Below are positions 2,841-60,633 of a stretch of 64,000 bases of DNA, in pieces. Origin of the DNA: Convolutriloba macropyga (lineage: Eukaryota); assembly GCF_964194025.1 (NCBI RefSeq), contig NC_134471.1, positions 81,468,001 through 81,532,000 on the forward strand, written 5' to 3'. Under the pieces are notes generated by a model, which was not told the origin of the DNA, did no database searches, and saw only the letters and a program-made list of their open reading frames with translations. The number at the start of each line of letters is the position of its first letter. Within the stretch, counting starts at the first letter, position 1. A program made the translations under genes and the position numbers.

Positions 2841-3538
2841 TTACACAGCCGATTGTTTTATACAATTAAAAGCAGTTTCGTTTGCAAGTTTAACAGATTG
2901 AGCTAAATCTCTTCCATTGCAAATCCCAAAAACAAATCCAGCTGCAAATGCATCCCCAGCACCATTCGTATCCAACATTGTCTCACCATCGCCTTTTAAA
3001 ATATTGGCATCAAATCTCTTTACCGCAAATTCTTCGATTTGCTCTTTCAAACAGGTCAAGGTCGATTTATCGCCTCGGGTCATGACGACAACAATTTGTT
3101 TACCGTTAACTGCGGAACCCACAACCCGTTTCTGGACGTATAAAATAGCTTTGTAAGGGTCGACAATACCTGTAAAAGCTGCAAATTCTTCATAATTACC
3201 TATTACATAATCAGAAAATTTCAACGCATCCCATACTCGCTCTTTCATAGTTTTTGATTCAAGAATTTTGTAAGACGATAAATTAAATACCATCAAAATG
3301 TTCCATTTCGATATTTTCTCCGCGAGAAATAAAAATACCCAATAATTTGGATGTAAAAGGACAAAGGCCACCATGTAAAGGCCCTTGGCAGCCTCCAGTG
3401 ACGTAACAAACTCAGAATTACGTAATAGCGTCTCGGGTGTTACGTCATCAGCTCCTCCGAGAGATACAAGGCAGCGATTACCTTCGCAGAGCAGTACGCA
3501 ACATTTACCAGTAACTCCTGTCGGGCATCTTTTATTTT
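2841..3538 (-). CDS. ADK: Adenosine kinase-like PfkB/ribokinase family protein, last exon
   Basis: The frame of ORF 2841-3374 extends upstream through TGKCCVLLCEGNRCLV (ADK TGxCAVL..NRSLV). It contains DYVIGNYEEFAAF, MTRG and the PfkB signature DTNGAGDAFAAGF. The 5' boundary (3528-3538) is uncertain. Confidence 0.82.
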
Positions 3539-4029
3539 GTAAGTCATTTCAAGGACTTCAATGCTACATGCCTCCCTAGTTGACCACCATCAAACACAAC
3601 CATAAAAATCTTTACGTCATTTTATGCAAATTTATCAAAATACTAAAAAAAGAACACTTGAATTCCAAAGACAGATATAAATACCATGCCGATGGGAGTG
3701 TAGGGTAAATGCACAAATCATTGCTTTTGTTTAGGACAAAAATTAATTTATTGTATTAAAATTAACTGAATTTAAAGTCTCTCCATGACAGGTTTCCATA
3801 ACATAGGTTATGAGAAGTTTGAAATTTCATAAAGAAATGGGTCCTAATTTTTTTCACGGTTTTAAATTCAGAATTATTACTAATTGGATTAGATATGATG
3901 AAGTCATTCCAGGACTCTATAGCTCTGGCGAAAAAAAAACAGTTCTTAAGGTAATGCGATTTATATTTGAGATGGAGAAAATTTGTTTTTGGTAGTGCAG
4001 TGTAGGAAATTCTCCTAATTTTAGGAAAA

Positions 4030-15141: not shown

Positions 15142-15416
15142 TGTAATAACCGTGCTTTGTGTACGGTTACATTTTCGGTTGGGGGTTTTCTTGAGCACTT
15201 TAAACTTCGGGATTACCGATAGCATTCTCTAAGTCTGAGACTTTAATTTAAATATGAAGAAGTAATTATTCAAACGGTTTAAGGCAGAGTTAGGGTTATT
15301 GATTGGAAATAAAAGAAGTTTCAAAAGTTGAGAAGATGTAGAGCTATTTAGAGAAGGGCAGCTCAATTATATGAGGTTTAGTTTCGCATATGGAATTTGG
15401 TTTCGGTCCTACTGAT
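15142..15416 (-). mobile_element. Antisense solo LTR, 3' half (split by Gypsy copy 1)
   Basis: Reverse complement of the LTR 3' end (...aacccccaacc...gcacggttattaCA). Left TSD ACTA at 15138-15141. Confidence 0.9.
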
Positions 15417-15589
15417 TATAGTGAACCATAATGTATGACATGCTCATAAATTACATATTAAGCGCATAATTTGTAATTTATGAGCATGTCATACATTATG
15501 ATACATTATGGTTCACCTTACACAATCGAGCTGCCTCTCTTTAATTGCTTTACATCTCTCATCTTCACAAATCTTCTAATATTTACATC

Positions 15590-16293
15590 TCGTACAGCAA
15601 CCAGGAGAAAAACTGACTGATTTTTTGGGAGATTTAAAGCAGTTGGCTTTGAAAGCTTACCCAACGGAGTCGCAAGACATTAGAGACCATCTCGTTCTGA
15701 GAGGATTTCTAGAAGGAATCAACCATAGTCAGGTGAGGTTAGATCTCAGAAAGCAAATTGGCGATAAGGATATGAACATTGAAACAGTTTTGGAAAGAGC
15801 ATTGCATCTGGAAGCTGTAACAAGAATAGAGGAGGAAGAGCAAACACCAAAAGTTGCGGTAATTAGACGAGATGAAACAAAAGATTTAGTGGAGGCCGTC
15901 ACCAAGCTTTTGAACCAATTGTCAGTAGATGACAAACAGCGAGAAAACCGTCGAAACCAATCTAGGGAGCGAAGTGGTTCCCGGGGACGGTGGGGTGACG
16001 ACAGACGTGACAGAGGACAGCAACAAGATCGTGGGTTTAACGATCGGCGGCGATTTCCAACGCCAGGACCTAGTCACCGAGACAGATCTGTTGGAAGAGA
16101 GGAACCGTCTAGGAGGAACGACAGGCAGGGTTTCAAGTGCAGAGCCTGTGGACAAGAAGGACACCTTTCGAGGAATTGTCGAAATTGTTTCCTATGTGGA
16201 ATTTCCCAACACTTGAAAAGAAACTGCCCTTTTAAAAAGAAAACCACCGAGAACTGCAATGTCATTAGAGTTTGTTCGACAAACACAATTTAA
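15590..16293 (+). pseudogene. gag: Gag, 5'-truncated (two CCHC knuckles)
   Basis: CRACGQEGHLSRNC and CFLCGISQHLKRNC. The TAA at 16291 is AAA in copy 2 and pol continues in the same frame, so the ancestor had a single gag-pol ORF. Confidence 0.88.
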
Positions 16294-19200
16294 TGTCTAA
16301 ACGCAGAAATCATACTTCATGGGAACAGATGCGTTGGATTAATAGACAGTGGAAGTAGTATATCGCTTTTGAGCTGGTCCACATACGAAAAACTGGGAAA
16401 ACCGGGAATTGTACAAACATACACAAAACGAGTGTTAACAGCCAATAACTCAGCTGTCAAAATATTAGGCAGAGTAACGCTTTTGGTACAGATGCAACCA
16501 AGACTACCGGAGGTCGAACAAGAGTTTGTGATAACGGCAGACGGAGGTATAAAATGTCTGCTGGGAATTGATTTCCAGAAAACCAATAAATGCGTATTGA
16601 ACTTACACGAAGAGAAACTATATAGCAGTCACTTTAAAGTTTCAATACCACTCACCACAGAGAAAACGCAAGGTGTTCAAGTTTTTGCAATTGCGGGACA
16701 AAACACTTATATACAGAGTAAAAACGAAAATCTAATCAAAATTAGATTAGCTGATGAAAACGGAGAAGAAATTCCGGGAGTGGAAGGATTAGTGGAAGCA
16801 ATTGGAGATTTTGAACTAAAGACTGGTTTGCTTTTAGCCGCCTGTATGATATCAATGGAAGATGGTTGGAGTTTGATAAAAGTGTTAAATCTAACGGACG
16901 CACCAGTAACCGTGTATAAAAACACTAAAGTGGGAACTTACTTTGAAAACAAACAGAACTTAGTTGTGAATGGAACTTTCACAAATCAAAATAAGCCAAA
17001 AACATTAGAAACTTTTCAAATGGGAAAACACGCAAACTTGGAAGGTTCTAAACTAAATGACCAGCAGAAAGAAAAAGTACAGGAATTGTTCACGAGACAT
17101 CAACAAGTCTTCTCACGAAACTCAAATGACTTAGGATATTGTGACAAAATTAAACACCAGATTAAACTCAACAAAGATGCACAGCCGTTCAGAAGAAGTT
17201 ATTGCAGTATGAGTTTTGACAAAAGAAAAGCAATGAAAAAAATTGTCGAAGATCTAGAGGATGCAAAATTAATTGAACCAACCCATTCGTATTGGGCAGC
17301 ACCATCAATATTGGTGAAGAAGAAAGATGGTAGCTACAGACTAGTTGTAGATTACAGAGGTTTGAATAAACAAATCGAGAAAACCAGTTGGCCGCTACCA
17401 AGAATAAATGACGTTATTGATTCTCTAGATGGAAATTGTTACTTTTCCAATATCGATTTGACATCGGGATATTTTCAAATGGCACTCGATGAAGAGTCAC
17501 AGAACGTGACAGCCTTTGTAACTCCAATGGGACTCTACAAATGGAAGAGACTACCCATGGGTTTGGCGTCAGCGCCAGGAGCTTTTCAAAATTTAATGGA
17601 ATTGATCATGTCGGGACTCTCCTACGAGGTGGCTCTAGTATACCTGGATGACATAATCATCTTCGGTAGATCCTTTGAGGAGCATCTCAACCGCCTAGAT
17701 CTCGTACTTGGGCGACTTAAAGACGCTGGATTGAAAATAAAAGGCTCAAAATGCAGGTTTTTTCAGGAAAAAATTCATTTCCTGGGACACATTGTATCAA
17801 ATAAAGGCGTAGAAGTGGATCCGGAGAAAGTAGCGGCAGTCAGTAAAATGAAAAGCCCACGAACAATAAAAGCATTGAGAGCTATATTAGGACTAGTAGG
17901 CTTTTACAGAAGATTCATACAAGATTTCGGAAAAATAGCAGAGCCGCTTTATAAGCTATTAAACAAAAAAGAACGTTTTACTTGGAGCAAGGAATGCGAA
18001 TCAGCAGTTGAACAACTAAAACAAGCTTTACAGAAAGCACCGATTTTGGGTTATCCGAATGACACGGATCCCTATACGTTAAACACCGACGCCTCTTTGT
18101 TTGGAATTGGCGCAATTATTTCCCAAAGACAACAATGGGGTGAAAGAGTTATTGCATACGCAAGCAAAACGCTCAGCAAAAGTCAACGAAACTATTCTGC
18201 GACAAAACGAGAACTTTTTGCATTAGTTTATTTTACTCAACACTTCAGAAATTATCTTCTTGGACAAAAATTTTTAATTGTTACTGACCCTAGGGCCCTC
18301 ACGTGGTTATATAGTTTTAAGGAACCAGACGGATTATTGGCCCGGTGGATAGAAAAGCTCGGACAGTTTGACTTTGAAATCAAACACGAAGCGGGAAAAA
18401 AGATCCCTCACGCGGACTGTCTGTCGAGAGTTCCACAGACTGAAAACCAAGTCGAAGACTGCAATCAAGTGAACCAAATAAATACGGAAGAAAAAAATAT
18501 CTGGTCCATTGGACTAGGGAAATCTGTTTAACAACTAGTTGAACATCAGAAAAATGCAGCCGACCTCATTATACTGAGAAACTGGAATGAGAACGGGAAA
18601 CGCCCTCAAAGAAAACACATGGCAGGAGCCTCTAGGGCACTGTGGAAACGTTGGACTGATTTCAGAAACTTACGGATTGAAAATGATCTAATCAAGAGAC
18701 AGAAACATATTGACGAAATTAATAACTTAACACAAATAGTCATTCAGAGATCACTTTTAAAAGAAATTCTACCTTTCCTTCATGAACATTGCGGACACTT
18801 TGGTATGGCCAAGACATTTGATCGGGTTCGAGAACGATTCTACTGGCCCGGGATGAAAAAAGATGTCCATGAGTGGGTAAGTTCTTGCGAAGAATGCTGT
18901 CAAAAGAAATCTCCACACCAGAAACACATACACAGTCTGACAACGTGGAAACCAAGTCATCCGTTCTGGCAAGTTGCCTTAGACATTATGGGACCTTTAC
19001 CAGAGTCCAGCGGAAACAAATACATTCTGTTAATTGGAGATCAATTTACAAAATGGTATGAAGCAATTCCCATGAGCAACCAAGAAGCTTCAACGGTCGC
19101 CTTTGTAAATGTATGGGTTTCAAGGTTTGGTTGTCCGGCAAATCTTCATAGCGACAAGGGCAGTAATTTTATGTCGAATCTTTTCAAGAACATGTGTAAA

Positions 19201-20325
19201 GAGCTGGGAATTAACAGGACTTCAACAACAGCTTATCACCCTCAAGGAAACGCAATGATAGAGCGCACCAATCGCACAATCGAAGAGAGTCTTGCAAAAT
19301 ACGTGGGTGAACATCACAACACCTGGAGCGACTACCTTCCGCTAGTAATGATGGCGTACAGATCATCAATTCACTCTGTTACGAAGTACAGCTCCCTTTA
19401 CCTCCTTTTTGGACGATCATGCGCGCTGCCGATTGATAGCATGTATCAAACAATACAAACCAAAATCTACCCAACTTTGAGTGATTATGTTGGTTGCTTG
19501 AAAGATGAACTACAAACGTGCCATGAGCTGGTACGGGAAAGCATGGATGTGGAGCAACAAAGACAAAAAACCTACTATGACCGTAGCACATTTGGACCAC
19601 AATATGAAGTAGGTGATTTAGTAATGGTGTTCAACCCCACAATAAAAACTGGCCAGACAAAGAAATTTAAATCCTTTTACAGCGGACCGCAGGTAATACG
19701 TGAAATAATAAATGATCTGAACTTTGTTATTGAGGATGTGAAAACAAAAAAACAACAAAAGGTCAACTACGATCGACTCAAACGTTTTAACAGTAGAAGT
19801 GCTACCACCGATAAAAAAGAACCTAAGAAGGGAAAGATTGAACCGAAAATAACACAAAACAACCTTACGGAGGACAATGATTTTGTGGAAATTGAAGTGG
19901 TGACCCCAAAACAGAATGACACAGAAAGAAGAGAAGTTCAACCTGAAGGAAATATTAGTCAAATTAATCCTAATACTGAAACTCACAATGAGACAGTCAA
20001 AGACGAATCGTTTCAAACACCTATGGGTGGGAGTACAAGAGAATCAATAAATACTAACACCAATAATAAGAGCAGAAGCACAAAGATACCTGCGCCCAAA
20101 GTAGCCACACAGCAGAAGCGGGATAGTCTGGTGTCAACATCCGAAAGGAGTGAAGGCGAAGAATTTCCAAATAGGAGCACGGCTTCTACTTCGCAAAATG
20201 TCACCGAACGACGATATCAGACAAGAAGTGCGTCGGGAATAACAAGACCACGGAAACTGAAAAACTATTTTTTATTCAAGGATAACGATTCAGATGAAAA
20301 ATTTGATAATGATGTATTTTTTTAA
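16294..20325 (+). pseudogene. pol: Pol (protease, RT, RNase H, integrase) with one in-frame stop
   Basis: LIDSGS protease; LPMGLASAPGAFQ and YLDDII in RT; TDAS and NYSATKRELFA in RNase H; H...GHFG...YWPGM...CEEC; LDIMGP, HSDKG and IERTNRTI (DDE); GPQ (GPY/F). Stop at 18529-18531 is GAA in copy 2. Confidence 0.95.
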
Positions 20326-20341
20326 AAGGTGATACGACAAA

Positions 20342-22398
20342 ATGCAGAGTGCGTGGAACCCACATTGGATCGTGCAGCTGAACTGGAAACTTCTTCAGTT
20401 GGTTAGCATATTAGGTTTTTCACAATCCTTGGAGATTGTGGGGTATGATTTTGGGAACATTCTACAGACGCAGAAATTTGCAATGACGGAACCGACAAAA
20501 TGTGAAACGTCACATATAAATGAGGAGCAGGTAAACAAAGGAGGACTGATCTACGCCAAAAGCAGCATGAGTAAACTAAAATACTGCATGTACAGGGCTG
20601 CATATACGGTAACTGTGCTGAAAAAAAGTATTTGGTATGACGACGCAACTTACTTAAACGAAAAATCACAAATAATTCCAACGTTTTACCCAATGAGTCA
20701 GTCTGTCAAAATCTATGGCAGGGACACAAAACGCGGTTACCGGGTCTCGGTGATTTTGAATTCAATGCTCCCAAAGAAGTCCTCAACGAGATGAATATTG
20801 ACCGAACCGACGCTGAATTTGTTCAGAAGATATCAAAAACTTTCATGAAAGGCGGAAATGAGAAAGGAGTGAATTATGTCTACCCCGTGGATTGGATCAA
20901 TCCAAAAGGTGAAACACAGAAAGGTAACATCATGATAAATGCAGAAATTTTCATGGGGACTTTGTTCATTGAAACTAGGGAAGCAAATGAAGGAACATGG
21001 TTATATTTTAAAGACCCTTTGAAACAGGAGCAGACCTTGTTATATCAAGGAGACACATTTGAAATAGATTCAGTACAATATCTGTTCGACCAAGACAAAA
21101 AACCAAACATCTTAACGATCGTTAAATTTTCAGACTCGATAACAGCAAAACTAGTCCGCGCTGGAAACAAAAATTACTTGACGAGCAAATTAGACAGGAA
21201 AAGAAATTTAGTTGTCCAGTTGAAAAACAAGACAAAACATATAGACAGTTTTCTGCTTTTTGAAACAAACCACAGAAATTTGTTTTATACAACGGAAAAG
21301 TTGAAGGCCACGGAACAAAATTTTTCAACAACAGATATATCTGAGACAGATCTCAGGGACATAAAACTCGATCAACTTTTTGTGTGGGATTTTCGAGGCA
21401 TGTTTGAAAACCTGAAAGAAATAGAGTTATTAAATTGTCACATAGAAAAACTGCACAGAGCTATGATTCTAACGACATCAATTAACGGAAATTCACACCA
21501 AATTTTCTTAAGTCAACAAAAAGCTCTGGGTACACACGCAGAAAGAGCGGGAGGAATACTATATGTCCATAGGTGCGCTAAAGTAATCGTACATGTTGTC
21601 GAAAATCAGTTTTGTACGGAGGAAGTACCAGTTAGGATGTTTTCTGACAACACTTCAGAAGTAATTAGATACATGGACCCCATTTCTAGAGTATTCTATA
21701 GAAATTTCACACTGATTAATTGCAACCCCATGTACCCGAACGCTCTTGAATTGCAGAATGGGTCATGGATAACATATGGGCGAAGGATACAATTAATTGA
21801 AAAACCCAATGTTATGCCTAATTATAGAGTTAACGTCAATTGGTCAACTTCGGCGCCAATGGAAGGGTTTTTCAATGACAAGGACCTGGAACTTAGCAAA
21901 AGGGCCCAAAGGTTAAGGCATTCGAGAAAGACGATAACAGGAAGAGAAGTTTTCCTGGGACAAGGAGATTTATATGAGCATGAGACTCTAGAGTATTTCA
22001 ACAAGGATTTAAATTACAATAATTAGTGGCATGAATTGCTGATTTTTGAATATTTGGGTAATGAAGTGAAACAAATCTGGCCTGTGGCCAGGGAAATAAC
22101 CATCAGTTTAATGACTATTTTTATTGGATCTAAAATCATATTTTGTTTGGTACGCGTGTTTCTTTCAATCGATATGCTACGCAGTGGCACCAATCCTGTA
22201 ATTGCACTGCAACCCATTAACCCAATGGGGGAACTAGGTTATTTTCATTATTTAAAACAACGTAAAAAGGAACAAGAATTGACAAGAAAAAGGACAGTTG
22301 AACGGTGTGATGGTGAAACAAACATCGTTGTTATAAAAGCAAAAAAGGCAAAATCTGTACCAGATATGGCAGAAATTGAAATCGATACATTAGACTAA
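20342..22398 (+). pseudogene. env: Envelope-like glycoprotein resembling chuvirus (Jingchuvirales) class III fusion proteins
   Basis: N-terminal signal-like stretch then IVGYDF; FETNHRNLF; GGILYVHRCAKVIV...CTEEVPV...YMDPISRVF...INCNPMYP; several NxS/T sites; C-terminal hydrophobic segment ITISLMTIFIGSKIIFCLV. Frameshift near 20693 is repaired by copy 2; in-frame TAG at 22024. Confidence 0.75.
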
Positions 22399-22420
22399 TT
22401 TACGTGTATGATATGTAGGA

Positions 22421-23263
22421 ATGGCAGAACCAAAAATTGGTGATTATTGCTATTATCTACCCGAGTTGTTCGAAGTGAGGTCAATAGTCAGGCAACAAGT
22501 GTATCGGATTGTTGGTGTAACCTCAAACAAAAAGTACGTGGTGCCACTGACGCAGCTGCAACCACCCAATATAGTGGATAGAGCCGCAATTAGCGTTGAT
22601 GAGTTAAATGAGATGCAACACAGAATCGAGGAACAACAAAAGAAGATTGACAACAGCGAAATGCTGGGAACAGCCGGGGCTCGGCTCGAAGAGGAGCTCC
22701 GGCAGTTAAAACTTGAAAGTCAAAGATTAGGTGATCAATTGCTGGAGACCCAACGGCAACTTGAATACGCTGGGAATCAGCGGGAGTCCTGCAGAAGGCA
22801 GGTGGAAGCATTGAAGAAAGAGTTGGAGGAGGTTACAAATGTAGCCGAAACAAAAACAAGGGAATGTATCGCTCTGGTGGACGAGCGGGAGTGCTTAGCT
22901 CGGGAGTTGGAGAATGCCGAGATAGACAATAGAAAGCTGAGGGGTAGAGTAAAAACAGAGCAAACCTCAAAGAAGGTCATACAGAGGAGGCTGGAGGCGA
23001 TCAATGCGCAGAGCCCGATCAGTCGACCTCCAAACTTTTATGAACTTCTATTCCTGCCACAGGGGGCCACAACCAGTACTATCCAGAAACATTTCAAAAC
23101 GTTAGCAATGCTTTGTCATCCGGACAAGGGTGGTCGTGAGGACATGTTCAAAATCATTCTTCAAGCAAAGAAAATTATGGAAGACGAGGAGGCCCGTAAT
23201 ATCTATGACAAGTACGGCATTGAAAAAGCACAAGAATATATGAACTCGAAAATGGACATTTGA
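22421..23263 (+). CDS. Coiled-coil plus C-terminal DnaJ (J-domain) protein encoded inside the LTR element
   Basis: Intact 280-aa ORF with NFYELL...ATTSTIQKHFKTLAMLCHPDKGG...FK.I..AK.IMED...RNIYDKYG. It ends about 40 nt before the PPT and has a homologue in copy 2. Confidence 0.92.
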   Translation: MAEPKIGDYCYYLPELFEVRSIVRQQVYRIVGVTSNKKYVVPLTQLQPPNIVDRAAISVDELNEMQHRIEEQQKKIDNSEMLGTAGARLEEELRQLKLESQRLGDQLLETQRQLEYAGNQRESCRRQVEALKKELEEVTNVAETKTRECIALVDERECLARELENAEIDNRKLRGRVKTEQTSKKVIQRRLEAINAQSPISRPPNFYELLFLPQGATTSTIQKHFKTLAMLCHPDKGGREDMFKIILQAKKIMEDEEARNIYDKYGIEKAQEYMNSKMDI

Positions 23264-23317
23264 AACTCTTGCTGTGTGAGTGAGTAGAACACTCACATTT
23301 TTCTAAGAGGGAGGCAG

Positions 23318-23934
23318 TATAGTGAACCATAATGTATGACATGCTCATAAATTACATATTAAGCGCATAATTCGAAATTTTCATAAACAAAAAGGAGAAC
23401 AAAAAGAGATGGTTACTAATAGTAAACCGGATTTTAACAATATAGAGAAAGCATCATAAATAATGATGGGAATCATCATAGAATTTAATCTTGACGGGAA
23501 ACGTCAAGGAATGTTTGTTCATGACGGGATTCGTCAAAGCAGGTAAACCTGTTATCTGTTAGTTTAACTAACAGGGACCCATGCGGTAGAAAATAACTAT
23601 GAGAAAATCCCACGGAGATTAACGAAAATGGGTAAAAATAACCTAAGTTTAATTAACCATTGATAGGACTGAAACCAAAGAACATATTCAAACCTAAACC
23701 TTACACAATCGAGCTGCCTCTCTTTAATTGCTTTACATCTCTCATCTTCACAAATCTTCTAATTTTTACAAGCAATTGATCTAATTTTGTATTAAACTGA
23801 TTGAACTTTTACATTTGCTCCATTAAATTCAAGTCTGAAACTTGGAAAATTTTCCTCAGTAACTCCGAGGTTTAAAGTGCTTAGGAATAACATCCAACCC
23901 AAACCGTAACCGTTGACAGTGCACGGATATTACA
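23318..23934 (+). repeat. 3' LTR of copy 1 (617 bp, TA...CA)
   Basis: Follows the PPT directly; homologous to 49571-50167 and 59186-59807. Confidence 0.93.
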
Positions 23935-24245
23935 TGATGGCTGAATAATCTTAGGTTGTTTTTACCCATTTTCTTTAATCTCTTTGGGATTTTCTCATAG
24001 TCATTTTCTACCGCACGTGTCCCTGTTAAATAAACTAACAGACAACAGATTAACCCGTCAGGAATCCCGTCAATAACAAACATTCCTTGACGTCTCCCGT
24101 CAGGATGAAATTTCGTTATGATTCCCATCATTATCTAAGATGCTTTCTTTATATTGTTAATTGTTCTCCCATTTATTGCGAAAATTTTGAATAGTGCGTT
24201 CAAAATGTATTTTATGTTATACATTAAATTTTATCGATTACTACA
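23935..24245 (-). mobile_element. Antisense solo LTR, 5' half
   Basis: Reverse complement of the LTR 5' half, starting TGTAG at 24245. Right TSD ACTA at 24246-24249. Joins 15416 seamlessly once copy 1 is removed. Confidence 0.9.
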
Positions 24246-25135
24246 ACTAGCTAAGTCAAGTGAGCGAATCTTGTTCTTATTCAATTCGCTCTTAATTCTT
24301 GTCTTCTTTGATTTGATTATAAGCTCTTTCTACTTATTTAATTCATGTTTGATTTGTTTTTGCTTTAGTTCGGCTTCAGGCAGAGATATAAATAGAGGAC
24401 TTGACAATTGAACTGATCGTTCATATTCCTTAAGGCGGTCATCAATTTTATGTTCCGGCCACTCTGCCTTATCGGAAACGAAAGGATATACCTGTATTTT
24501 GGATAGTAGTGGGGATTCTTTAATAGATTAGGTAATAGCCCATTGTTGATTTATTTCTCTCATTCTATTTAAAGGTCTTTAATATTAGGTGTTGTACGTG
24601 CCAAGAAGGTCAGTTTATGCTGAACTGATTAAACGAAAAATTTATAAACATTTTGATGTGAAAGATTGGCATGAGCGGCTAGTTTTCTTAACTACAATTT
24701 CGGCTGTTTTATTGATCTTTCTAAAAAATCTTTATTATCAGAGTCTATTACACTACCAAGTACTCTACATCCGTCAACTATTTCAACGTCATCGTGAACA
24801 AAGATGTTTTTTCAAAAAGATGTTCTATTGTAATGATGTGGCATTTGGTAAGATGGTAACCGAAAGCAGGACCGTGTTTTATCAACGCTTCAAAAAGTTT
24901 TTTCGAGTTATAAAGAGAGCCAACAGCATTGCCATCGTCTGCATAACATTTTTGGACCGTGAATCAATCGTCAAGAAGTTTAATAAAGGGGATAATGGCA
25001 ATTCCATACATCGACATCGCAAATAGGGAATATTGTTTGTTTGTTAATAAACGAACTCTAATCACAGTATGTTTTACATATAGAATGATAGAGAGAACGA
25101 CCTAATTTATTGATGTTTCGTGAAGCAAGATCAGG
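24246..25135 (-). mobile_element. CRE-like non-LTR retrotransposon, RT part (continuation of 14190-15141)
   Basis: Minus strand reads AMSMYGIAIIPFIKLLDD*FTVQKCYADDGNAVGSL...HGPAFGYHLTKC (RT YADD motif near 24935). Confidence 0.82.
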
Positions 25136-38924: not shown

Positions 38925-40204
38925 TTTTGGATTTGAATCTGACAAAGATTTGAATCTTATTGTTGTAAGAGTTTACTTTAAAATGGCATAATTTTGAAAT
39001 AGTTTTAGTGGCCTGAAATTTGAGTCCAAAAAGAAAAAGAGTCTGCGATAATTTGTTTATCTAATTGTTTATGAGGCAAGTACTAGTTATTAACTTTGTT
39101 CATCTATTTGTTTATTGTGCAAGTACTAGTTATTAACTTTTAATCGATTAGCGTCAATAAAAATATGACTAATTATCGGTTATAATTACCATTATCTTTT
39201 ACCATTAGAAATGATCATTAGAAATGTCTCTTTTGAAGTTGTTCATCAATCGTTACACGATTGCATGTATCAATCGTTACACGATTGTTCATCAATCGTT
39301 ACACGATTGTAAATGATATATAATATGCAATTGTTCTTGGGTGGGGGATTGTAAAAATCCCCCTTTCAAAAATTGCCCAGTTCAAGGTGACGGTCCCCTC
39401 AAACCGAACTTTAGATGATGATTCAGAGCATTGTAGATTTGGAGTCATAATATTAAATATTAAATATTAAACTAATCTACTTAGATGAGTAGAAACCCAA
39501 ATGAAAATATATTCATTTTGACGTGATAGGGGCCAAACGGGGGTCAATCAATTTTCTTTTATCGATCAAGTTTTTGGGCATCACCTACTGGCTATTATTA
39601 CATAAATGATAAGTTTCATTGATGATTGACCATTTCTTTGGTGATGATTGAATGTCACAATCGACCTTTGAATTGATTTAATTATGTATCAATAACAATC
39701 GTTTGACGATTGTAAAACAAATGAAAACATTTTCCAATAGAGGTCGCACGATTGCATTTACAATACAGCGAAGTTTTGAAATTAAAACACAGACGGCAAT
39801 TAAAACTTGCTTATAATGTAAGTCAAATATAACTGAGCCCTTTGTTCAACAACTGCAAAGTAATACATTGTAATTTGATTTTAAACCGTTTAAAGCTAGG
39901 AATTGATATAATTATTTTTATTAGCTGAGTTTTTCAGGACTGAAGAATGATGATAGGTATCCGACATTTTAGCGTGAAAACAATGAGCAAGAATACTTAA
40001 TTTTTGTACCATGGAAACTAGGTGTTTGATATATACTAACAACTAAGGTCACTCGTTCACTGCTGGAAAACTAACCACGCTGTCTCAAGTTGTTGACCGT
40101 TAACAATCCGTATGTGTACCTATACCCACCACCATGACAGCCCGTCTCCATAACGAATACAGCACTTTCCGTGCTGGGGTTTCCTCGCTGCAGACGAGCG
40201 GGTG

Positions 40205-40715: not shown

Positions 40716-41107
40716 TTGAAGCAAACGCAGAACATTTACAATACAAGTAAACAAACGCCGCACGTTCAGATCGTTCGGAAACCACATGACTCAAACAACT
40801 CTATTACTTACGCAAGCGTAGGACGATAGAATGCAAAGAATGCAAAGAATGTAATTACCAAAGCGTAGAAAGTGAATCACGCGCTAATAACTCGCTTTTG
40901 CCAAATTCTCCAAGTACAGATCAGTCGCTCAATTTATTCAAGTCAAATTAGTTCTAATTCTAATTCAAACTCGCCAAGTAAAGATCACTCGCACAGAAAT
41001 TTTCTCTATTCATTCTATTGAAGTCAAATTAATTCTAATTCATCAAATTCTTCTATTCATCTTCATCAAATTATTTCGTATGCAACCCCCCTTCTGTTTA
41101 TACTAAT

Positions 41108-44294: not shown

Positions 44295-44553
44295 NNNNNN
44301 NNNNNNNNNNNNNNNNNNNNNNNNNNNNNNNNNNNNNNNNNNNNNNNNNNNNNNNNNNNNNNNNNNNNNNNNNNNNNNNNNNNNNNNNNNNNNNNNNNNN
44401 NNNNNNNNNNNNNNNNNNNNNNNNNNNNNNNNNNNNNNNNNNNNNNNNNNNNNNNNNNNNNNNNNNNNNNNNNNNNNNNNNNNNNNNNNNNNNNNNNNNN
44501 NNNNNNNNNNNNNNNNNNNNNNNNNNNNNNNNNNNNNNNNNNNNNNNNNNNNN
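44295..44553. other. Assembly gap (N)
   Basis: N run. Confidence 1.
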
Positions 44554-49570: not shown

Positions 49571-50167
49571 TGTAGTAAACTATAGAACTTAATGTATGAC
49601 AAGCTCATAAAATACAAAGTGAACGCACAATTCGAAATTATCACAATAAAGGAAAAAACAAAAAGAGATGGTTACTAAGAGTAAACCGGATTTTAACAAT
49701 ATAAAAAAGCATCATAAATAATGATGGAATCATCGCGGAATGTCATCTTGACGGGAGACGTCAAGGAATGTTTTTTCTTGACGGGATCCGTCAGGCAGGT
49801 AAACCTGTTATCTGTTAATTTAATTAACAGGGGCCCGTGCGGTAGAAATTCCCGAAGAGATTAAAGAAAATGGGTAAAAATAACCTAAGTTTAATCAACC
49901 ATTGATAGGACCGAAACCAAAGACCATATTCAAAACTAAACCTCATATAATTGAGCTGCCTTTCTCTTATTAGCTTTACAACTTCTCATCTTTAGAAAAT
50001 TTTTGTATTTTCGACCAATAATTCTAACTCTATATTGAACCATTTGAATATTTACAGCTTCATAATTAATTAAAGTCTTATAAGATTTTCATCAGTAAAC
50101 CAGAGGTTTTCAAGTGCTCCTAGAAAAACCCCCAACCCGTAACCGTACACAGTGCACGGATATTACA
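49571..50167 (+). repeat. 5' LTR of copy 2 (TG...CA)
   Basis: TGTAGTAAAC...GGATATTACA. Confidence 0.93.
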
Positions 50168-50168
50168 C

Positions 50169-50180
50169 TGGCGACAGAGA
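50169..50180 (+). promoter_or_regulatory. Primer-binding site (TGGCGACAG)
   Basis: TGG lies 1 nt after the LTR end; repeated at 59809. Priming tRNA not determined. Confidence 0.85.
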
Positions 50181-51188
50181 TTTTTTAAAAAAGTTATTTT
50201 TTTGAAAACTTTAATAAAAATTTCGGTAGGAAGACGCAAATAAAAAGCACTTTAATCCCGAGAATCCGAGAATCGAGTTCATCTCGAGAAAACACAAGAA
50301 TTGGGATAACAAATCACCAATTCCACCAATTTCCACAAAAGTTTGTGGGATTTAGTTGCAGAAGTCAAAACGGAATCAGTCGCAAGTGAGAAATTACTCG
50401 CGTGGGGCTAACTTTTACTCGTTGGTGAAGAGAGAAAATTGCTTGTGTGGAAAGACCGCATCATACCAAGTGAGTACAAATAAAGAGTTTTCTCTAGTTG
50501 TTGTTGTTGGTAATCAAAACTGATCGCCACTGCGTTAGTCTTGTTAGTCTATGAAAATTTTTTTTCTCTTTCGATCATGGTTGCGAAATTGACTTGTAGA
50601 TAACGAGCGACATAACAATCGGAACAAAAAAAACTGCAGCGTAATTGCGTTGTAAAATCAATTAAAGCAATTGCGTTGTTTTGTACTCTGAAAGTTATAT
50701 ATTGACTTTTTCTGAAACTACCATTAATTAAAAAAAAAACAAAAAAGCGAAAAAAGTTGATCAGGTAACAATAAGCAGGAGAAAGTAAAAGAAAATTAAA
50801 GCACCTAATGTCATCCCTGTCGTAATTAGAAAAAACTATATATTTTATTAGCATCAATAAAACAGGAAAAATCGGAATTCAACTAGTATCATATTAAAAT
50901 AATAAAGAGAAATTAGGTGCGACAGTCATCTATAAGACCTAAATTAAAATTTGGTTAAAAATCAAGAAACAAAATAGGTAAAAAGGAAATACCAAACTGA
51001 AATAAGCGTTAGGTTTTGTTAAAAAAAATTTTTAAACCATTAAAAAAAGAGACAATTATAGAAATTCAAAATAAAATTAGAAAACACTTACCAGTGACGA
51101 TCTACTTGGTAATTACTTATAGAAACTATTATTTTCAACAACTAAACAAAGTTTTAAAAGGCCACGATGCAAGAAGGGGAACAGTAAA

Positions 51189-54100
51189 ATGGCAACGGGC
51201 TCGACCTCTAGAATGCTATTATACGAAGCGTTTACCAGTTCAAACGACTTGGAAGGCTACTTGACGCATTTTGAGCTATTAGCAGAACTACAAAAGTGGA
51301 AAAGAACTGAAGGAGATCCGGCCCGCGAAGTTGATGAACGGCCGCATTACTTTGCACTAAGGCTACAAAAATCTGCCATAGAGTTCTATCGCACTCTGCC
51401 GCAAGCTACAAGTGAAAAAAAAATGATGAATGCGTTAAAGCTTTTTGGAGAACACTGTAGAGTAAAAACCGGTCGTTTTCCGGGAACGGCTAGCTCGCAG
51501 CGTACAGCAACCCGGAGAAAAACTGACAGGTTTTCTGGCAGATTTAAAGCAGTTGCTTTGAAAGCTTACCCAACAGAGTCGCAGGACATTAGAGACCATC
51601 TCGTTATGAGTGGATTTCCAGAAATAATCAACCATAGTCAGGTGAGGTTAGATCTCAGAAAGCAAATCGGCGACAAGGATATGAAAATTGAAACAGTTTT
51701 GGAACGAAGCTGCAACAAGAATAGAAGAGGAAGAGCAAACACCAAAGTTGCTGTAATTAGACGGGATGAAACGAAAGACTTAGTGGAGGCCGTCACCAGG
51801 CTTGTGAACCAATTGTCAGTAGATGACAAACAGCGGATGACAAACCAATCTAGGGAGCGAAGCAGTTCCCTGGGACGATGGGGTGACGACAAACGTGAGA
51901 GAGGACAGCAACAAGATCGTGGGTTCAACGATCGGCGGCAATTGCCAACGCCAGGATCTAGTCTTCGAGACAGATCTTTCAGAGGAGATGAACCGTCTAG
52001 GAGGAACGACAGGTGGGGTTCCATGTGCAGAGCCTGTGGACAAGAACGGCACATTTCGAGGTATTGTCGAAATTGATTCCTATGTGGAAGTTCCCAACAC
52101 TTGAAAAGAAACTGCCCTTTTAAAAAGAAAACCACCGAGAATTGTTTTGTCTTTAGAGATTGTTCGACAAACACAATTAAATGTCTAAAGGCAGAAATCA
52201 CACTTCATGGGAACAGATGCGTTGGATTAATAGACAGTGGAAGTATTATATCGCTTTTGAGCTGGTCCATATACAAAAAACTGGGCAAACCGGGAATTGT
52301 GCAAACATACACAAAACGAGTGTTAACAGCCAATAACTCAGCAGTCAAAATAATAGGAAGAGTAACGCTGTTGGTACAGTTGCAAGCAAGACTGCCGGAG
52401 GTTGAACAAGAATATGTGATAACGCAGACGAAGGTATAAAATGTCTGCTGGGACTCGATTTCCTGAAAACCAGCAAATTTGTATTGAACTTACGCGAAGA
52501 GAAGCTATATAGCAGTCACTTTAAAATTTCGATACCGCTTACCACAGAGAAAACGCAAGGTGTTCAGGTTTTTGCAGTTGCGGGACAAAACACTTATATA
52601 CAGAGTAAAAACGAAAACCTTATGACAATTAGATTAGCTGATGAAAACGGAAAAGAAATTCCGGGAGTGGAAGGATTAGTTGAAGCCATTGAAGATTTTT
52701 AACTAAAGACTGGTTTGCTTTCACTCGCCTGTATGATATCAATGAAAGATGATTCGAGCTTGATAAAAGTCATGAGTCTAACGGAGGCACCAGTGACCGT
52801 GTAAAAAAGCACTAAAGTAGGAACTTATTTTGAAAACAAACAGAACTTAGTTGTGAATGGAATTTTACAAATCAAAATAAGCCAAAAACATTGGAAAATT
52901 TTCAAATGGGAATACAAGCAACCTTGGAAGATTCTAATCTACATAACCAGCAGAAAGAGAAAGTACAGGAATTGCTCATGAGACATCAACAAGTTTTCTC
53001 CCGAAACTCGAATGACTTAGGATATTGTGACAGAATTAAACACCAAATTAAACTCAACAAAGATGCACAGCCGTTCAGAAGAAGTTATTGCAGTATGAGC
53101 TTTGATAAAAGAAAAGCAAAAAAAAATTGTCGACGATCTAGAGGATGCAAAATTAATTGTTGAACCAATCCATTCGTATTGGGCAGCACCATCAATTTCG
53201 GTGAAAAAGAAAGATGGCAACTACAGACAAGTTGAAGATTACAGAGGCTTGAACAAACAAATCGAGAAAACCAGTTGGCTGCTACCAAGAATAAATGACG
53301 TTATTGACTCTCCAGACGGAAATTGTTACTTTTCCAATATCTATTTGACATAGGGATTTTTTCAAATGGCGCTGGATGAAGAGTCACAGAACGTTACAGC
53401 TTTTGTAGCCCCAATGGGACTCTACAAGTGGAAGAGACTACCAATGGGTTTGGCGTCAGCGCCAGGACCAAAATTTATTGGAATTGATCATGGCGGGACT
53501 CTCTTATGAAGTGGATTTAGTATTCCTGGATGACAAAATGATCTTCGGTAGATCCATTGAGGAGCATCTCAACCGTCGAGATCTCGTACTTGGACGACTT
53601 AAAGACGCTGGATTGAAAATTAAAGGCTCAAATTGTAGATTTTTTCAGGAAAAAGTTCATTGCTTGGAACACATTGTATCAAATCAAGGCGTAGAAGTGG
53701 ATCCGGAGAAAGTAGCGGCAGTAGGTAAAATGAAAAGTCCACGAACAATAAAAGACTTTGAAGTAATATTCGAACTAGTTGGTTTTTACAGAAGATTCAT
53801 ACAAGATTTTGGAAAAATAGCAGAACCTCTTTATAAGCTATTAAACAAAAAGAACGTTTTTCTTGGAGCAAAGAGTGTGAATCAGCAGTTGACATCTAAA
53901 ACAAGCTTTACAGAAGCACCAATATTGGGTTATCCGAATGACACGGATCCCTATACGTTAACCACAGACGCTTTTCTGTTTGACATTGGCGCAATTATCT
54001 CCAAAGACAACAATGGGGTGAAAGAGTTATTGCATACGCAAGCAAAACGCTCAACAAAAGTCAACAAAACTATTCTGCGACAAAACGAGAACTTTTTGCA

Positions 54101-56212
54101 ATAGTTTATTTCACTCAACACTTCAGAATTTATGTTCTGGGACAAAAGTTTTTAATTGTTACCGACCATAGTGCCCTCACGTGGTTATATAGTTTTAAGG
54201 AACCAGACGGATTATTGGCCAGATGATAGAAAAACTCGGACAGTTTGATTTTGAAATCAAAAACGAAGCGGGAAAAAGATCCCTCACGTAGACTGTCTGT
54301 CGAGAGTTCCACAGACAGAAGACCAAGTCAAAAACTGCGATCAAGTGATCCAAGTAAATACGGAAGACAAAAACATCTGGTTCATTGCACTAGGGAAATC
54401 TGTTGAACAACTAGTTGAACATCAGATAAATGCAGCGGACCTTATTATACTAAGAAACTGGATTGAGAACGGGAGACGCCCTCAAAGAAAAAACATGGCA
54501 GGAGCCTCTAGAGCCCTGTGGAAACTTTGGACTGACTTCTGAAACTTACAAATTGAATATGATCTAATCAAGAGATAGAAACGTATTGACGAATTTAACA
54601 GCTTAACACAAATAGTCCTTCAGTGATCACTTATAAAAGCAATTCTACTTTTCTTTCATGAACATTGCGGATATTTTGGTAGGGCCAAGACATTTGATCG
54701 GGTTCGAGAACGATTCTACTGGCCTGGGATGAAAAAAGATGTTCACGACTAGGTAAGTTCTTGCAAAGTATGCTGTCAAAAGAAGTCTCCACACCAGAAA
54801 CACATGCACAGCCTGACAACGTGGAAACCAAGTCATCCGCTTTCGCAAGTTGCCTTGGACATTATGCGACCTTTACCTGAGCCAAGTGGAAACAAATACA
54901 TTCTATTCTGTCAGTTGGAGATCGGTATACAAAATGCTATGAAGCAATTCCCAAGAGCAACCAAGAAGCTCCAACGGTAGCTAAGGATTTTGTAAACGTA
55001 TGGAGTTCAAGGTTGGGTTGTCCAGCAAATCTCCATAGCGACAAGGGCAGTAACTTCATATGGAATCTTTTCAAGAACATGTGTTAAGAGCTGGGAATCA
55101 ACAGCACATCAAAAACAGCTTATCATCCTCAAGGAAACGCAATGATAGAGCGCATCAATCACACAATCGAAGAGAGTCTTGCAAAATATGTTGGTGAACA
55201 TCACAACAACTGGAGCAACTATCTTCCGCTAGTAATTTTGGCGTACAGATCATCAATTCACTCTGTTACCAAGTACAGCCCCTTTTATCTCCGTTTTGGA
55301 CGATCATGCGCGCTACCGATTGATTACATGTATCAAACAATACAAACCAAAATCTACCCAACCTTGAGTGATTACGTTGGTTGCTTGAAAGACGAACTAC
55401 AGACTTGCCATGAAATGGTTCAGCAAAGCATGGATGTGGAGCAAGAAAGACAAAAAACCTACTATGACCGTAGCACATTTGGACCACAATATGAAGTAGG
55501 TGATTTAGTAATGGTGTTCAACCCCACAACGAAAAGTGGCCAGACAAAAAAATTTAAATCGTTTTACAGCGGACCGCAAGTAATACGTGAAAAATTCAAC
55601 GATCTAACCTTTGTTATTGAGGATGTGTAAACGAAAAAACAACAAAAGGTCCACTACAATCGACTCAAACGTTTTAAAAGTAGAAGTGCTACCACTGAAA
55701 AAAAAGAACCTATAAAGTCAAAGAGTGAACCGAGCATATCCCAAAATGACCTTACGCAGGACAATGATTTTGTGGAAATTGAAGTAGTCACTCCAAAATT
55801 GAATGACAAAGGAAGAAGAGAAGTGAATCCTGAAGAGAGTAATAGTCAAATTAACCATAGTACTGAAGCTCACAATGAGACAGTCAAAGAGGAATTATTT
55901 AAAACAAAAATTGGTGGGAGTACAAGAGAATCAATAAATACTAGCACAAACAACAAAAACAGAAGCACAAAGATACCTGCGCCTAAAGTAGCCACAGAGC
56001 AGAAGCGGGATAGCCGGGTGGCAACATCCGAAAGGAGTGAAGGCGAAGAATTTCCAAATAGAAGCACGGCTTCTACTTCGCAAAGTGTTACCGAACGACG
56101 ATATCGAACAAGAAGTACGTCGGGAATAACAAGACCACGGGAACTCAAAGACTATTTTTTTGTTCAAGGATAACGATTCAGATAAAAAATTTGATAATGA
56201 TTTATTTTTTGA
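51189..56212 (+). pseudogene. gag-pol: gag-pol of copy 2, fragmented
   Basis: ATG at 51189 (MATGSTSRM...YLTHFELLA). Fragments align with copy 1 and carry many frameshifts and stops. Confidence 0.9.
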
Positions 56213-56229
56213 AAAGGTGATACGACAAA

Positions 56230-58270
56230 ATGCAGAGGGCATGGAAACCACATTGGAATGTGCAGCTGAACTGGAAATTTCTCCAATTGGTTAGCATAGT
56301 AGGTTTTTCACAATCCTTGGAGATTGTGGGGTATGATTTTGAGAACATTCTGCAGACGCAAAAATTTTCCATGACGGAACGGACGAAATGCGAAACGTCA
56401 CACATAAATGAGGAACAGGTAAATAAAGGAGGACTCATCTACGCCGAGAGCAGCAGGAGTAAACTAAAATACTGCATGTGCACGGCTGCATACACGGTAA
56501 CTGTGCTGAAAAAAAGTGGTTGATATGACGACGCAACTTACCTAAACAAAAAATCACAAATAATTTCAACGTTTTACCCATTAAAAGAATCAATCTGCCA
56601 AATCCTATGGCAGGAACAAAAAGCGCGGTTACCGGTCTTGGTGAATTTGAATTCAATGCTCCTAAAGAAGTTATGAATGAGATGAATTTTGACCGAACCG
56701 ACGCATAGTTTGTTCAGAGGATATCAAAAACATTCATGAAAGGCGAGATGAAAAAAGAGTGAAGTATGTCTACCCCGAGGAGTGGATCAATCCAAAAGGT
56801 GAAACACAGAAAAGTAATATCATGATAAATGCTGAAATTCTCATGTGGACTTTGTTCATTGAAACTAGAGAAGCGAATGAAGGAACATGGTTATATTTTA
56901 AAGACCCTCTGAAACAGGAGCAGACCTTGTTATATCAAGGAGACACATTTGAAATAGTTTCATCACAATATTTGTTCGACCAAAACAAAAAACCAAACAT
57001 CTTAACGATAAATAAATTTTCAGACTCGATAACAGTAAAAATAAACCGTGCTGGGAACAAAAAGTACCTGACGAGCACATTGGACAGAAAAAGAAATTTA
57101 GTTGTTCAGTTGAAAAACAGGACAAAACAGATAGACAATTTTCAGCTTTTTGAAACAAACCACAGAAATTTGTTTTACACAAAGGAAACGTTGGCGGCCA
57201 CGGAACAGAATTTTTCACCAACAGATATATCTGAGACAGATCTCAGTGACATAAAACTTGACCATCTTTTTGTGCGGGATTTTTGAGGCATGTTTGAAAA
57301 TCTGAAACAAATAGAGTTATTAAATTGTCACAAGGAAACACTGCACAGAGTTATGATTTTAACGACACCAATAAACGGAAACTCACACCAAATTTTCCTA
57401 AATCAACAAAACGCTCTGGGTACACACGCAGAAAGAGCGGGAGGCATACTTTACGTCCCTAGGTGCGCTAAAGTTATCGTACATGTTATAGAAAACCAGT
57501 TTTGTACCAATTAGGGTATCTTTTGACAAAAGTTCAGAAGGAATTGGATACATGGACCCTATTTCTAGAGTATTCTATAGAAATTTCACACTAATTAAAT
57601 GCAACACCATGTACCCGTACGCTCTTGAACTGCAGATTGGGTCATGGATAACGTACGGCAGACGAATACAACTGATTGATAAACCCAATGATATGCCTAA
57701 TTACAGAGTTAACGTCAATTGGTCAACCTCCGCGCCAATGGAAGGGTTTTTCAATGACAAAGACCTTGAACTGAGCAAGAAGGCCCAAAGATTAAGGCAT
57801 TCGAGAAAAACGATTACAGGAACAGAAGTTTTCCTGGGACAAGGAGCTTTATATGAGCATGAGACTCTAGAGTATTTCAACACGGACTGGAAGTACAATC
57901 ACTAGTGGCATGACTTGCTGATTTTTGAATTCCTGGGTATTGACGTGAAACAAGTCTGGCATGTGGCCAGGGAAATAACCATCAGTTTGATGACTATTTG
58001 TATTGGATTAAAAATCATATTTTGTTTGGTACGTGTGTTTTTTTTTCAATCGATATGCTACGGAGTGGCACCAAACCTGTGATTGCTCTGCAACCTAATA
58101 ACCCAATGGGGGAACTAGGTTATTTTCATTATCTAAAACAACGTACTATGGAACAAAATTTGACAAGAAAAAGAACAGTTGAACTGTGTGATGGTAATAC
58201 AGACATTGTAGTTATAAAAGCAAAAAAGGCTAAATCTGACACAGAAATTGAGATTGACACATTAGATTAA
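56230..58270 (+). pseudogene. env: env-like glycoprotein of copy 2, fragmented
   Basis: ORFs at 56230, 56759, 57290, 57552 and 57998 align with 20342-22398. Confidence 0.8.
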
Positions 58271-58292
58271 TTTAAATGTATGATAAGTAGGA

Positions 58293-59133
58293 ATGGCAGA
58301 ACCAAAATGGCGGTTTTTGCTACTGTCTACCCGATTTGTTTGGGGTCAGGTCGATAGTCAGGCACCAAGTGTATTGGATTGTTGGAATAACCTCAAATAA
58401 AAGATACTTGGTGCCGTTGACGCAGCTGTAACCACCCAATATAGCAGATAGAGCCGCAATTAAAGTTATGGAGTTAAATGGGATGCATCAGAGAATCAAG
58501 GAACAGCAAAATAAGATTGACAACAGCGAAATCCTGGGAACTGCTGGGGCTCGGCTCGAAGAGGAGCTCCGTCAGTTAAAATTTGAAAGTCAAAGGTTAA
58601 GCGTTCAATTGCTTGAGACCAAACGACTGCTTGAATACGCTGGGAATCAGCGGCAGTCCTGCAGGAGGCAGGTGGAAATATTGAAGAAAGATTTGGCGGA
58701 GGTTACGAATGTAGCCGAAACAAAGACAAGAGAATGTATTGCTCTGGTGGATGAGCGGGAGTGTTTAGCTCGGGAGTTGAAGAATGCCGAGATAGATATC
58801 AGAAAACTAAGGACTAGGGTAAGAACAGAACAGACCTCAAAGAAGGTCATCCAGAGGAGACTGGAGGCGATCAACGCGCAGAGCCCGTTCAGTCGACCTC
58901 CGAACTTTTATGAGCTTCTACTCCTGCCACAGTGGGCCACAACCAGTACTATCCAGAAATATTTCAAAACGGTGGCAATGCTCTGTCATTCGGACAAGCG
59001 TGGTCGGGAGGACCTGTTCAAACTTATTCTTCAGGCAAAGAAAATTATGGACGATGAGGAGGCCCGTAATATTTATGACAAGCACGGGATTGAAAAAGCA
59101 GAGGAATATACGAACTCGAAAATGGACCTTTGA
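58293..59133 (+). pseudogene. Coiled-coil plus J-domain ORF of copy 2 (5' frameshift, HPD changed to HSD)
   Basis: MAEPK start at 58293; ORF 58468-59133 aligns with 22421-23263. Confidence 0.88.
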
Positions 59134-59185
59134 AACTCTTGCTTGTGAGTGAGTGGAACACTCACATTTTCTAAGAGGAAGGCAG

Positions 59186-59807
59186 TGTAGTCAACCATAG
59201 AACTTAATGTATGACATGCTTATAAAATACATAGTGAACGCACAATTCGAAATTTTCACAGTAAATGGTAGAACAAAAAGAGATGGTTACTAAGAGTAAA
59301 CCGGATTTTAACAATATAAAAAAAGCATCTGAATAATAATGGGAATCATTGCGGAAAGTCATCTTGACAGGAGACGTCAAGGAATGTTTGTTCTTGAGGG
59401 GATTCGTCATGCAGGTAAACCTGTTATCTTTTTGTTTAACTAACGGGGACCCGTGCGGTAGAAAATAACTATGAGGAAATCCCAAAGTGATTTAAAAAAA
59501 GGGTAAAACTAACCTAAGATTAATCAACCATGGATAGGGCCGAAACCAAAGACCTTATTCAAAACTAAACCACATATAATTGAGCTGCCTTTCTCTTATT
59601 AGCTTTACACCTTCTCATCTTTTGAAACTTATTGTATTTTGGACCAAAAATTCTAACTCTATATTGAACAGTTTGAATTTTTACAGCTTTATATTTATTT
59701 AGAGTCTTAGACTTAGAAGACCTTCATCAGTAAACTAGAGGTTTTAAAGTGCTTTTAGAAAAACCCCCAACCCAACCCGTAACCGTACACAGTGCACGGA
59801 TATTATA
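59186..59807 (+). repeat. 3' LTR of copy 2, also acting as 5' LTR of a tandem truncated unit
   Basis: Preceded by the PPT and followed by a PBS. Confidence 0.92.
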
Positions 59808-60465: not shown

Positions 60466-60503
<38 letters not shown>

Positions 60504-60633
60504 TATAAACATCAAAATAACAGGAAAAATCGGAATTCAGCTAGTATCATATTAAAGTAATAAAGAGAATTTAGGTGGGACAGTCATCTATAGGACTCTA
60601 AATTAAAATTTTGTTAAAAATTAAGAAAAAATA
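59808..60633 (+). mobile_element. Second PBS and leader of the same element (tandem, truncated before gag)
   Basis: Closely matches 50168 to about 50975, with a (TA)n expansion at about 60467-60503. Confidence 0.9.

Follow-up and report, generated by a model that had tools for sequence, protein, structure and literature searches.

Element copies in the window

The window, i.e., the whole 64,000-nucleotide stretch of DNA that was analysed, contained two copies of an LTR retrotransposon of the Ty3/Gypsy type, designated family A. The family encoded gag-pol, an envelope gene (env) and a fourth gene (ORF4) with a J domain. The features of the two copies and of an older LTR were as follows:

15417..23934, plus strand: copy 1, Ty3/Gypsy family A; internally deleted at its 5' end; 98.6% identity to other genomic copies
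15413-15416 and 23935-23938: 4-bp target-site duplication of copy 1, TGAT
15417..15587, plus strand: copy 1, rearranged remnant of the 5' LTR
15591..20325, plus strand: copy 1, remaining gag (CCHC knuckle) and pol (protease, RT, RNase H, integrase); single frame with two in-frame stops
20342..22398, plus strand: copy 1 env, predicted to encode a class III fusion glycoprotein of gB type; interrupted near 20695 and at 22024-22026
22421..23263, plus strand: copy 1 ORF4, 280 aa, unbroken
23033..23209, plus strand: copy 1, J domain of ORF4 (PF00226); HPD motif at 23117-23125
23301..23317, plus strand: copy 1, polypurine tract, identified from sequence
23318..23934, plus strand: copy 1, 3' LTR, 617 bp
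49590..59805, plus strand: copy 2, older; 87-89% identity to young copies; retains both LTRs; frameshifts and stops numerous
56230..58270 (approximate limits), plus strand: copy 2 env, decayed
58291..59133, plus strand: copy 2 ORF4; 83% protein identity, one stop
15142..15411, minus strand: part of an older inverted LTR of family A; remaining part at 23937-24246

Copy 1 was inserted into the older inverted family A LTR and was missing ~2 kb on its 5' side, namely: LTR, primer-binding site, leader and gag start. In copy 1, a small deletion near 20695 shifted the env frame and an in-frame stop interrupted it at 22024-22026; the copy 2 env was broken by a frameshift at 56634, further indels and three stops. 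An initial annotation of this DNA had rebuilt a ~685-aa glycoprotein by combining the two copies; it was correct that their frameshifts differ, and it left the stop in copy 1 and the extra indels and three stops in copy 2 unmentioned. The 3' LTR of copy 2 was followed by a second primer site and leader (59205-60630), forming a tandem unit with a common LTR.

Elsewhere, the window contained three diverged units in tandem, each about 2.6-3.3 kb long and 78-80% alike (25181-33873), a non-LTR retrotransposon with endonuclease and RT (44283-48169, minus strand), a remnant of another integrase-bearing element (41039-42618, plus strand), and a PfkB kinase frame (2841-3548, minus strand). Another mobile element may account for two long frames at 35472-38972 (minus strand), one of which contains a SET domain (E 2.6e-8) as well as internal repeats.

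Natural copies and assignment of family A

A genome search with the middle piece of env, in which 92 of 2140 candidates were scored, returned at least 96 matches. Twenty stretches were fetched around the top matches, and later work was based on such natural copies. The copies analysed were the best-scoring 30 of the 96 matches listed, a choice that biased them toward young copies. An unbroken env frame of 685-686 aa was found in six of the 20 fetched stretches, so the glycoprotein is real and rebuilding it from the window copies was not needed. An unbroken ORF4 with HPD was present in 10 of the 20, unbroken gag-pol in one, and all frames were intact in one.

Full copies of family A were ~10.3 kb with LTRs of 617 bp. 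Both LTRs were whole in 12 of 17 elements examined, and these LTR pairs were 92.9-99.8% identical, with a single mismatch in two of the 12. A clean 4-bp duplication flanked six of the 12. The primer-binding site paired with genomic tRNA-Ser(GCU) over 12 nt. Following a CCHC gag, the pol domains occurred in the order PR-RT-RH-IN, all within one 1682-aa frame, and the top PDB match of pol was Ty3 Gag-Pol (E 1e-112), well above caulimovirus and retrovirus matches. This domain order and these PDB matches assigned the family to Ty3/Gypsy, as the initial annotation had done, and LTRs, a tRNA primer site, a polypurine tract and a short target duplication were all present. A BEL/Pao identity was considered and ruled out by the Ty3-type matches and the single CCHC; no Pfam family typical of BEL was found in family A gag-pol at E 0.01. 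Overall, family A is a recently mobile Ty3/Gypsy LTR retrotransposon.

Host of the elements

The host is likely an acoel. The genome contained three unlinked Hox genes (one anterior, one central and one posterior, on the chromosomes C11, C9 and C1) and a Cdx gene, with gene classes assigned from their signatures, among the 70 of 80 homeobox matches inspected, about four of which were unreadable. The anterior Hox gene carried GCHLGPGVQ, given in the available part of PMC13125763 as a motif of convolutid acoels (Convolutidae). A COX1 contig was read by the invertebrate mitochondrial code (table 5), and on this code tunicates, echinoderms, flatworms, cnidarians and sponges were rejected as hosts; nuclear COX1 fragments were just 72% alike, and the contig may be a contaminant, so the assignment to acoels is carried by the Hox genes.

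Env sequence and predicted fold

All six sequence motifs quoted in the initial annotation were present in the natural copy P0030: GYD at 34, FETNHRNLF at 308, G.ILYV.RC at 405, C.EEVPV at 426, YMDP.SRVF at 445, and I.C....P at 460. The signal peptide, N-glycosylation sequons, C-terminal transmembrane (TM) segment and basic tail that it had described were also found in P0030, as a hydrophobic stretch at 17-27, six sequons, a stretch of TM length at 587-611 and a basic tail; the signal peptide and TM segment were read from hydropathy only. A TM helix was visible in the AlphaFold model of Env. The Pfam family PF24664 (Monjiviricetes_fusion) matched P0030 at E 3e-14 (52 bits against a cut-off of 27) and the window's own env middle piece at E 6e-15; on these scores the resemblance is not due to chance. 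A sequence search of the PDB with Env gave no match (best E 0.34), so Env is tied to gB through its fold only.

The AlphaFold model covered residues 28-686, was built from 66 sequences, and had a mean pLDDT of 72 and a pTM of 0.60, with model residues 467-544 poor. The comparison of this model by Foldseek, a check that the initial annotation had proposed, returned gB as well as chu-, xinmo- and qin-like glycoproteins. Against the PDB, herpesvirus gB occupied all 38 rows shown (best E 1.9e-11), with the gB alignment spanning model residues 1-464 and the domain V region at low confidence. Against BFVD, the matches were glycoproteins of a thrips negative-strand virus and of chu-like, xinmo- and qin-like viruses (E 6e-25 to 1e-20). 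Env model residues 49-225 superposed on gB 158-356 (domain I) at 4.2-4.8 A over 128-138 residues, and identity to herpesvirus gB in the structural alignments was 8-11%. Whole-chain TM-scores to gB and viral G were low (about 0.15-0.3) and VIA Z was at most 7.7, short of the value that the tool sets for a clear match; the gB match accordingly holds by domain. At these Foldseek and Z values, gB-like domains I-V were found in the Env model, which we read as having the correct class III domains in an uncertain arrangement. Env almost certainly has a gB-type fold, and its description as a class III glycoprotein of the family that includes chuvirus G was borne out by PF24664 and by the fold matches to gB and viral G.

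Seven ectodomain cysteines were conserved. A further cysteine pair was kept in six other envs and missing in families A, G and I and in two database relatives; the database relatives P0025, P0016 and P0151 were sequences without genomic context. An aromatic loop near Env residue 98, placed by gB numbering, is a candidate fusion loop.

Related families and origin of env

The genome held at least nine further LTR families with a related env. Trees of RT, integrase and env were made from this genome's families only, with a midpoint root and with families lacking a usable match left out of single trees. All three trees split families B, C and D from the rest; wherever both partners were included, F was paired with H, and G with I. 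A group of all J-bearing families (A, E, G and I) was recovered at 98/99 in the integrase tree and 92/90 in the RT tree; this group was unresolved in the env tree. The same main splits in the env and pol trees indicate that env has travelled with pol for a long time.

Several families differed in what accompanied env. The family B element (C15:43416808-43434000) had an env of 897-902 aa that carried an additional region at its N terminus and two hydrophobic stretches. This env was located ~3.8 kb downstream of pol, a distance exceeding the 1-kb filter given in the available part of PMC13524379; a 284-aa frame without an ATG followed. Family C contained a 611-aa post-env frame with no Pfam match (L087:723-2558), and its LTRs were 100% identical in two of two copies. 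Family D had a RING-finger-like frame downstream of env (L097:2087-2584; PF13920 at E 0.005, below the cut-off), with putative membership in the element. Family K (C10:8010526-8018216) was a 7.7-kb element with 99.6% identical LTRs, env directly after the 5' LTR and a coiled-coil frame. No gag-pol was found in family K by tblastn, and it is likely a non-autonomous env carrier; several other 769-aa env matches may belong to it.

The initial annotation had proposed that this Gypsy lineage captured its env independently from a chuvirus. The PF24664 match would accord with such a capture, as would the presence of chu-like viruses high among the BFVD matches, with E values as low as 3e-24, a stronger match than that to gB. 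However, the top matches were spread over chu-, xinmo- and qin-like viruses, which interleaved at 12-16% identity in the structural alignments, and at that identity the sequences name no donor virus for env. Two deep pol lineages had RTs that were 28-34% identical and envs that were just 14-18% identical, a pattern that two old captures could also give; against this, the env and pol trees shared their main splits. No relative was found in viral contigs, and metagenome contigs contained one 1.2-kb broken relative (29% identity, no flanks). Additionally, an ancient association is argued in the available part of PMC13524379 (Chary and Hayashi, eLife 2026). An independent chuvirus capture is therefore quite improbable, and the claim gives way to an env that has diverged along with pol.

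The presence of a gB/chuvirus-type env in Gypsy elements, which the initial annotation had treated as new, is likewise already published. As far as its available part goes, PMC13524379 reports gB-type env as widespread and ancient in metazoan Ty3/Gypsy elements, chuvirus-like homologues included. According to the same source, the chuvirus-like glycoprotein of mosquito BEL/Pao elements also adjoins gypsy POL in 114 elements of arthropods; elements of cnidarians, ctenophores and tunicates are taken there as evidence for an ancient association, and recent viral capture is argued against. An earlier source (PMC10084718, available part) found no clear Gypsy capture, which was the state of knowledge behind the initial annotation. 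The env itself is thus a further member of the published gB-type set; what is new is the host phylum, that of a likely acoel, and the J-domain fourth gene.

ORF4 and its J domain

The four-module layout with a J-domain gene that the initial annotation had described was recovered. ORF4 began 22 bp past the env stop and comprised an N-terminal module (~1-55), a long helix or coiled coil (59-197) and a J domain (~203-278; PF00226 in the window ORF4, E 7.7e-14, Pfam). The AlphaFold model of ORF4 contained one 139-residue helix and a J domain of four helices, of which II and III enclosed the HPD; the first 54 residues of the model were without defined structure. The N-terminal module gave no match in Pfam, Atlas and PDB profile searches. 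Its derivation as a duplicate of the SH3-like domain at the integrase C terminus was unsupported (probability 2.4%, E 0.019). The ORF4 J domains were nearest to those of cytosolic Sis1, DNAJA and DNAJB, and all database matches of ORF4 were at least 51% identical.

The same arrangement recurred in other families. In family E, the post-env layout was the same, at least 150 matches were found for its J region, and env was directly upstream of the J gene in 27 of 30 checked. HPD was retained in 26 of 31 family A and 29 of 30 family E copies. The decayed families G and I also had this ORF4 layout after env. The J domains of A, E and G were 34-37% identical, all with HPD, and the whole ORF4 proteins 26-32% identical. 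In families F and H, the frame after env encoded a coiled coil and a tail that was basic and rich in serine; Pfam found no J domain in the first 254 and 315 residues of these frames, and no HPD occurred in their full translations. Both families were recently active (LTRs 99.3-100% identical), so a J domain is not needed by the whole clade. It is quite likely that the ORF4 J domain is a working Hsp70 co-chaperone.

In family E, 22 of 26 copies had no in-frame ATG ahead of the conserved N-terminal block, which points to splicing. An acceptor scan under a first rule found acceptors at three of eight ORF4 starts and one of six env starts against a background of 8.2%. Under a second rule, adjusted after the sites had been seen and with G and I not independent, four of six ORF4 and two of four env starts were positive against 6.8%. 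The scans are only suggestive of splicing of ORF4 and env. Contigs of four runs from a single study covered all 30 bins, and no intron-like pattern occurred at the joints listed, a result that bears on neither expression nor splicing.

Selection on env and ORF4

Nonsynonymous and synonymous (N/S) variants were compared between singletons and shared variants among 31 family A copies. For env, N/S was 548/212 for singletons and 45/37 for shared variants (p 0.002); for ORF4, 232/78 and 12/18 (p 1.6e-4); and for pol, 669/249 and 33/53. By these sequence comparisons env and whole ORF4 of family A are under purifying selection. The family A J domain alone (79/18 vs 5/4, p 0.087) and family E ORF4 (167/61 vs 15/10, p 0.17) were not significant. 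Stops in family A ORF4 were few, with none common to three or more copies.

ORF4 might instead be a passenger, i.e., a host DnaJ fragment gained once and carried without use. The two tests that were not significant and the success of families F and H without J lean that way. Against them stand the purifying selection on the whole of ORF4, comparable to that on env, the scarcity of stops, and the same place and layout in lineages just 26-32% identical with HPD kept. The passenger reading is highly improbable and is largely refuted already by the conservation across families.

For env, the corresponding question is whether the protein could be kept for a role other than entry, such as cell-cell fusion or a superinfection block, while the element moves only within cells. 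The loss of the cysteine pair in the A/G/I branch is compatible with this, as is the multiplication in the genome of an LTR element with env and no detected gag-pol. However, the two cysteines disappeared as a pair, in two database relatives as well, a pattern in keeping with a tolerated change, and env is under selection inside replicating elements of many families. A non-entry role is distinctly unlikely, and it is fairly likely that Env is still a working fusogen in young copies.

Proposed mechanism and significance

The reading preferred overall, which we consider likely, is a recently mobile Ty3/Gypsy element with a long-held gB-type env and a fourth gene whose J domain would bring Hsc70 to the element's RNA-Gag complex. 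Copying of the genomic RNA would start from tRNA-Ser(GCU) and proceed in the way usual for Ty3/Gypsy elements, and env and ORF4 would be made from spliced RNAs. Env would enter the secretory path, trimerise and fuse membranes, and this fusion would let particles pass between cells, as Drosophila errantiviruses do. ORF4, having no signal peptide, would act in the cytosol or nucleus, where its N-terminal module may bind a target and its coiled coil oligomerise the protein. The J domain would then stimulate Hsc70, and the ribonucleoprotein would be remodelled during export, assembly or uncoating. Since the N-terminal module has no assigned fold, the target of ORF4 is a guess. The element's own RNA-Gag complex, held at slightly less than an even chance, was chosen by analogy with CERV of Cer1 (PMC10309623, as far as available) and for the resemblance of the J-less forms to nucleic-acid binders.

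The main alternative is that ORF4 serves counter-defence. Its J domain would divert Hsc70 from or onto host silencing, e.g., small-RNA loading, or would act on chromatin or cell-cycle complexes in the manner of polyomavirus large T. Hsc70 helps to load Argonautes, and the basic, serine-rich tails of the J-less ORF4 of families F and H look nuclear. Large T was a weak PDB match to the family E J domain (E 6.6e-4); cellular Sis1/DNAJA matches were far stronger (E 2e-11). Family A has HPDKGG, given as invariant for large T in the available part of PMC11720896. However, no Rb-binding or chromatin-reader domain was found in ORF4, and there was no sign of fast arms-race evolution, shared variants being mostly synonymous. 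Counter-defence is unlikely, and action on the RNA-Gag complex is the preferred reading.

Accessory genes are a hallmark of complex retroviruses, and for J domains encoded by an element itself there is precedent among DNA viruses. More tentatively still than the choice of target, acoels may host an infectious, 'complex' retrovirus-like clade that encodes its own Hsp70 co-chaperone. Its accessory gene would be the first with a J domain in any LTR retroelement. The J domain would have been gained a single time, by a coiled-coil accessory gene that was already there, and would serve to take over Hsc70, either to remodel particles or to counter host silencing.

The fourth gene matters more than env. 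The J domain is kept in three diverged lineages, and active J-less sisters occur in the same genome, which gives a built-in comparison for the role of Hsc70 in retroelements; the same comparison asks whether elements compete with host silencing for Hsc70. The env adds one phylum to the published gB-type picture. Xenacoelomorpha are a disputed early branch of the bilaterians. The available part of PMC13524379 dates env-carrying Ty3/Gypsy elements to the Pre-Cambrian, and because Xenacoelomorpha lie outside that survey, the present families are a direct test of the dating.

Comparison with known systems

Within the literature covered, a J-domain gene in an LTR element was not found (including the available parts of PMC13524379, PMC5408684, PMC10309623, PMC12440569 and PMC10410713), nor was an env-bearing Gypsy in acoels; Repbase and most subscription journals lay outside this scope.

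The closest systems are the HSV/gB-type errantiviruses of PMC13524379. From the available part of that paper, these share with family A the gag-pol-env order, a gB-like ectodomain flanked by a signal peptide and a TM segment, conserved cysteines, a large number of nearly identical copies, priming by tRNA-Ser and an env diverging along with pol. In contrast to the present elements, Xenacoelomorpha are absent from its genome list, its available text and seven supplementary files contain no acoel term, and the same material does not mention a fourth gene with a J domain. Anakin of mosquitoes (BEL/Pao; PMC10084718 and PMC13524379, available parts) is likewise an LTR element and has a glycoprotein of this family in its env position, whereas the present pol is Ty3/Gypsy and no recent viral donor is evident here. 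The glycoproteins of Jingchuvirales, xinmoviruses and qinviruses and herpesvirus gB share with Env the Pfam family PF24664, predicted class III domains and cysteine spacing, but are only 12-16% (viral G) and 8-11% (gB) identical to it.

For genes downstream of pol, the bdelloid rotifer LTR elements with captured ORF3s (PMC5408684) are alike in having host-derived cargo after pol and spliced messages. They differ in that their cargo (GDSL, DEDDy) replaces env, while the present cargo sits behind env, and the available part of the paper does not mention DnaJ. CERV of the C. elegans element Cer1, compared here by its description in the available part of PMC10309623, offers an earlier example of an accessory protein that is encoded after pol, made by splicing, and acts on element RNA; Cer1 is without env, and DnaJ is not mentioned in that part. 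Polyomavirus large T (PMC11720896, available part) is alike as a mobile element's own HPD J domain, one that binds Hsc70, and differs as the product of a DNA virus with an N-terminal J domain joined to a helicase. The present ORF4, in contrast, carries a C-terminal J domain on a coiled coil and is closer to cellular class A/B J domains.
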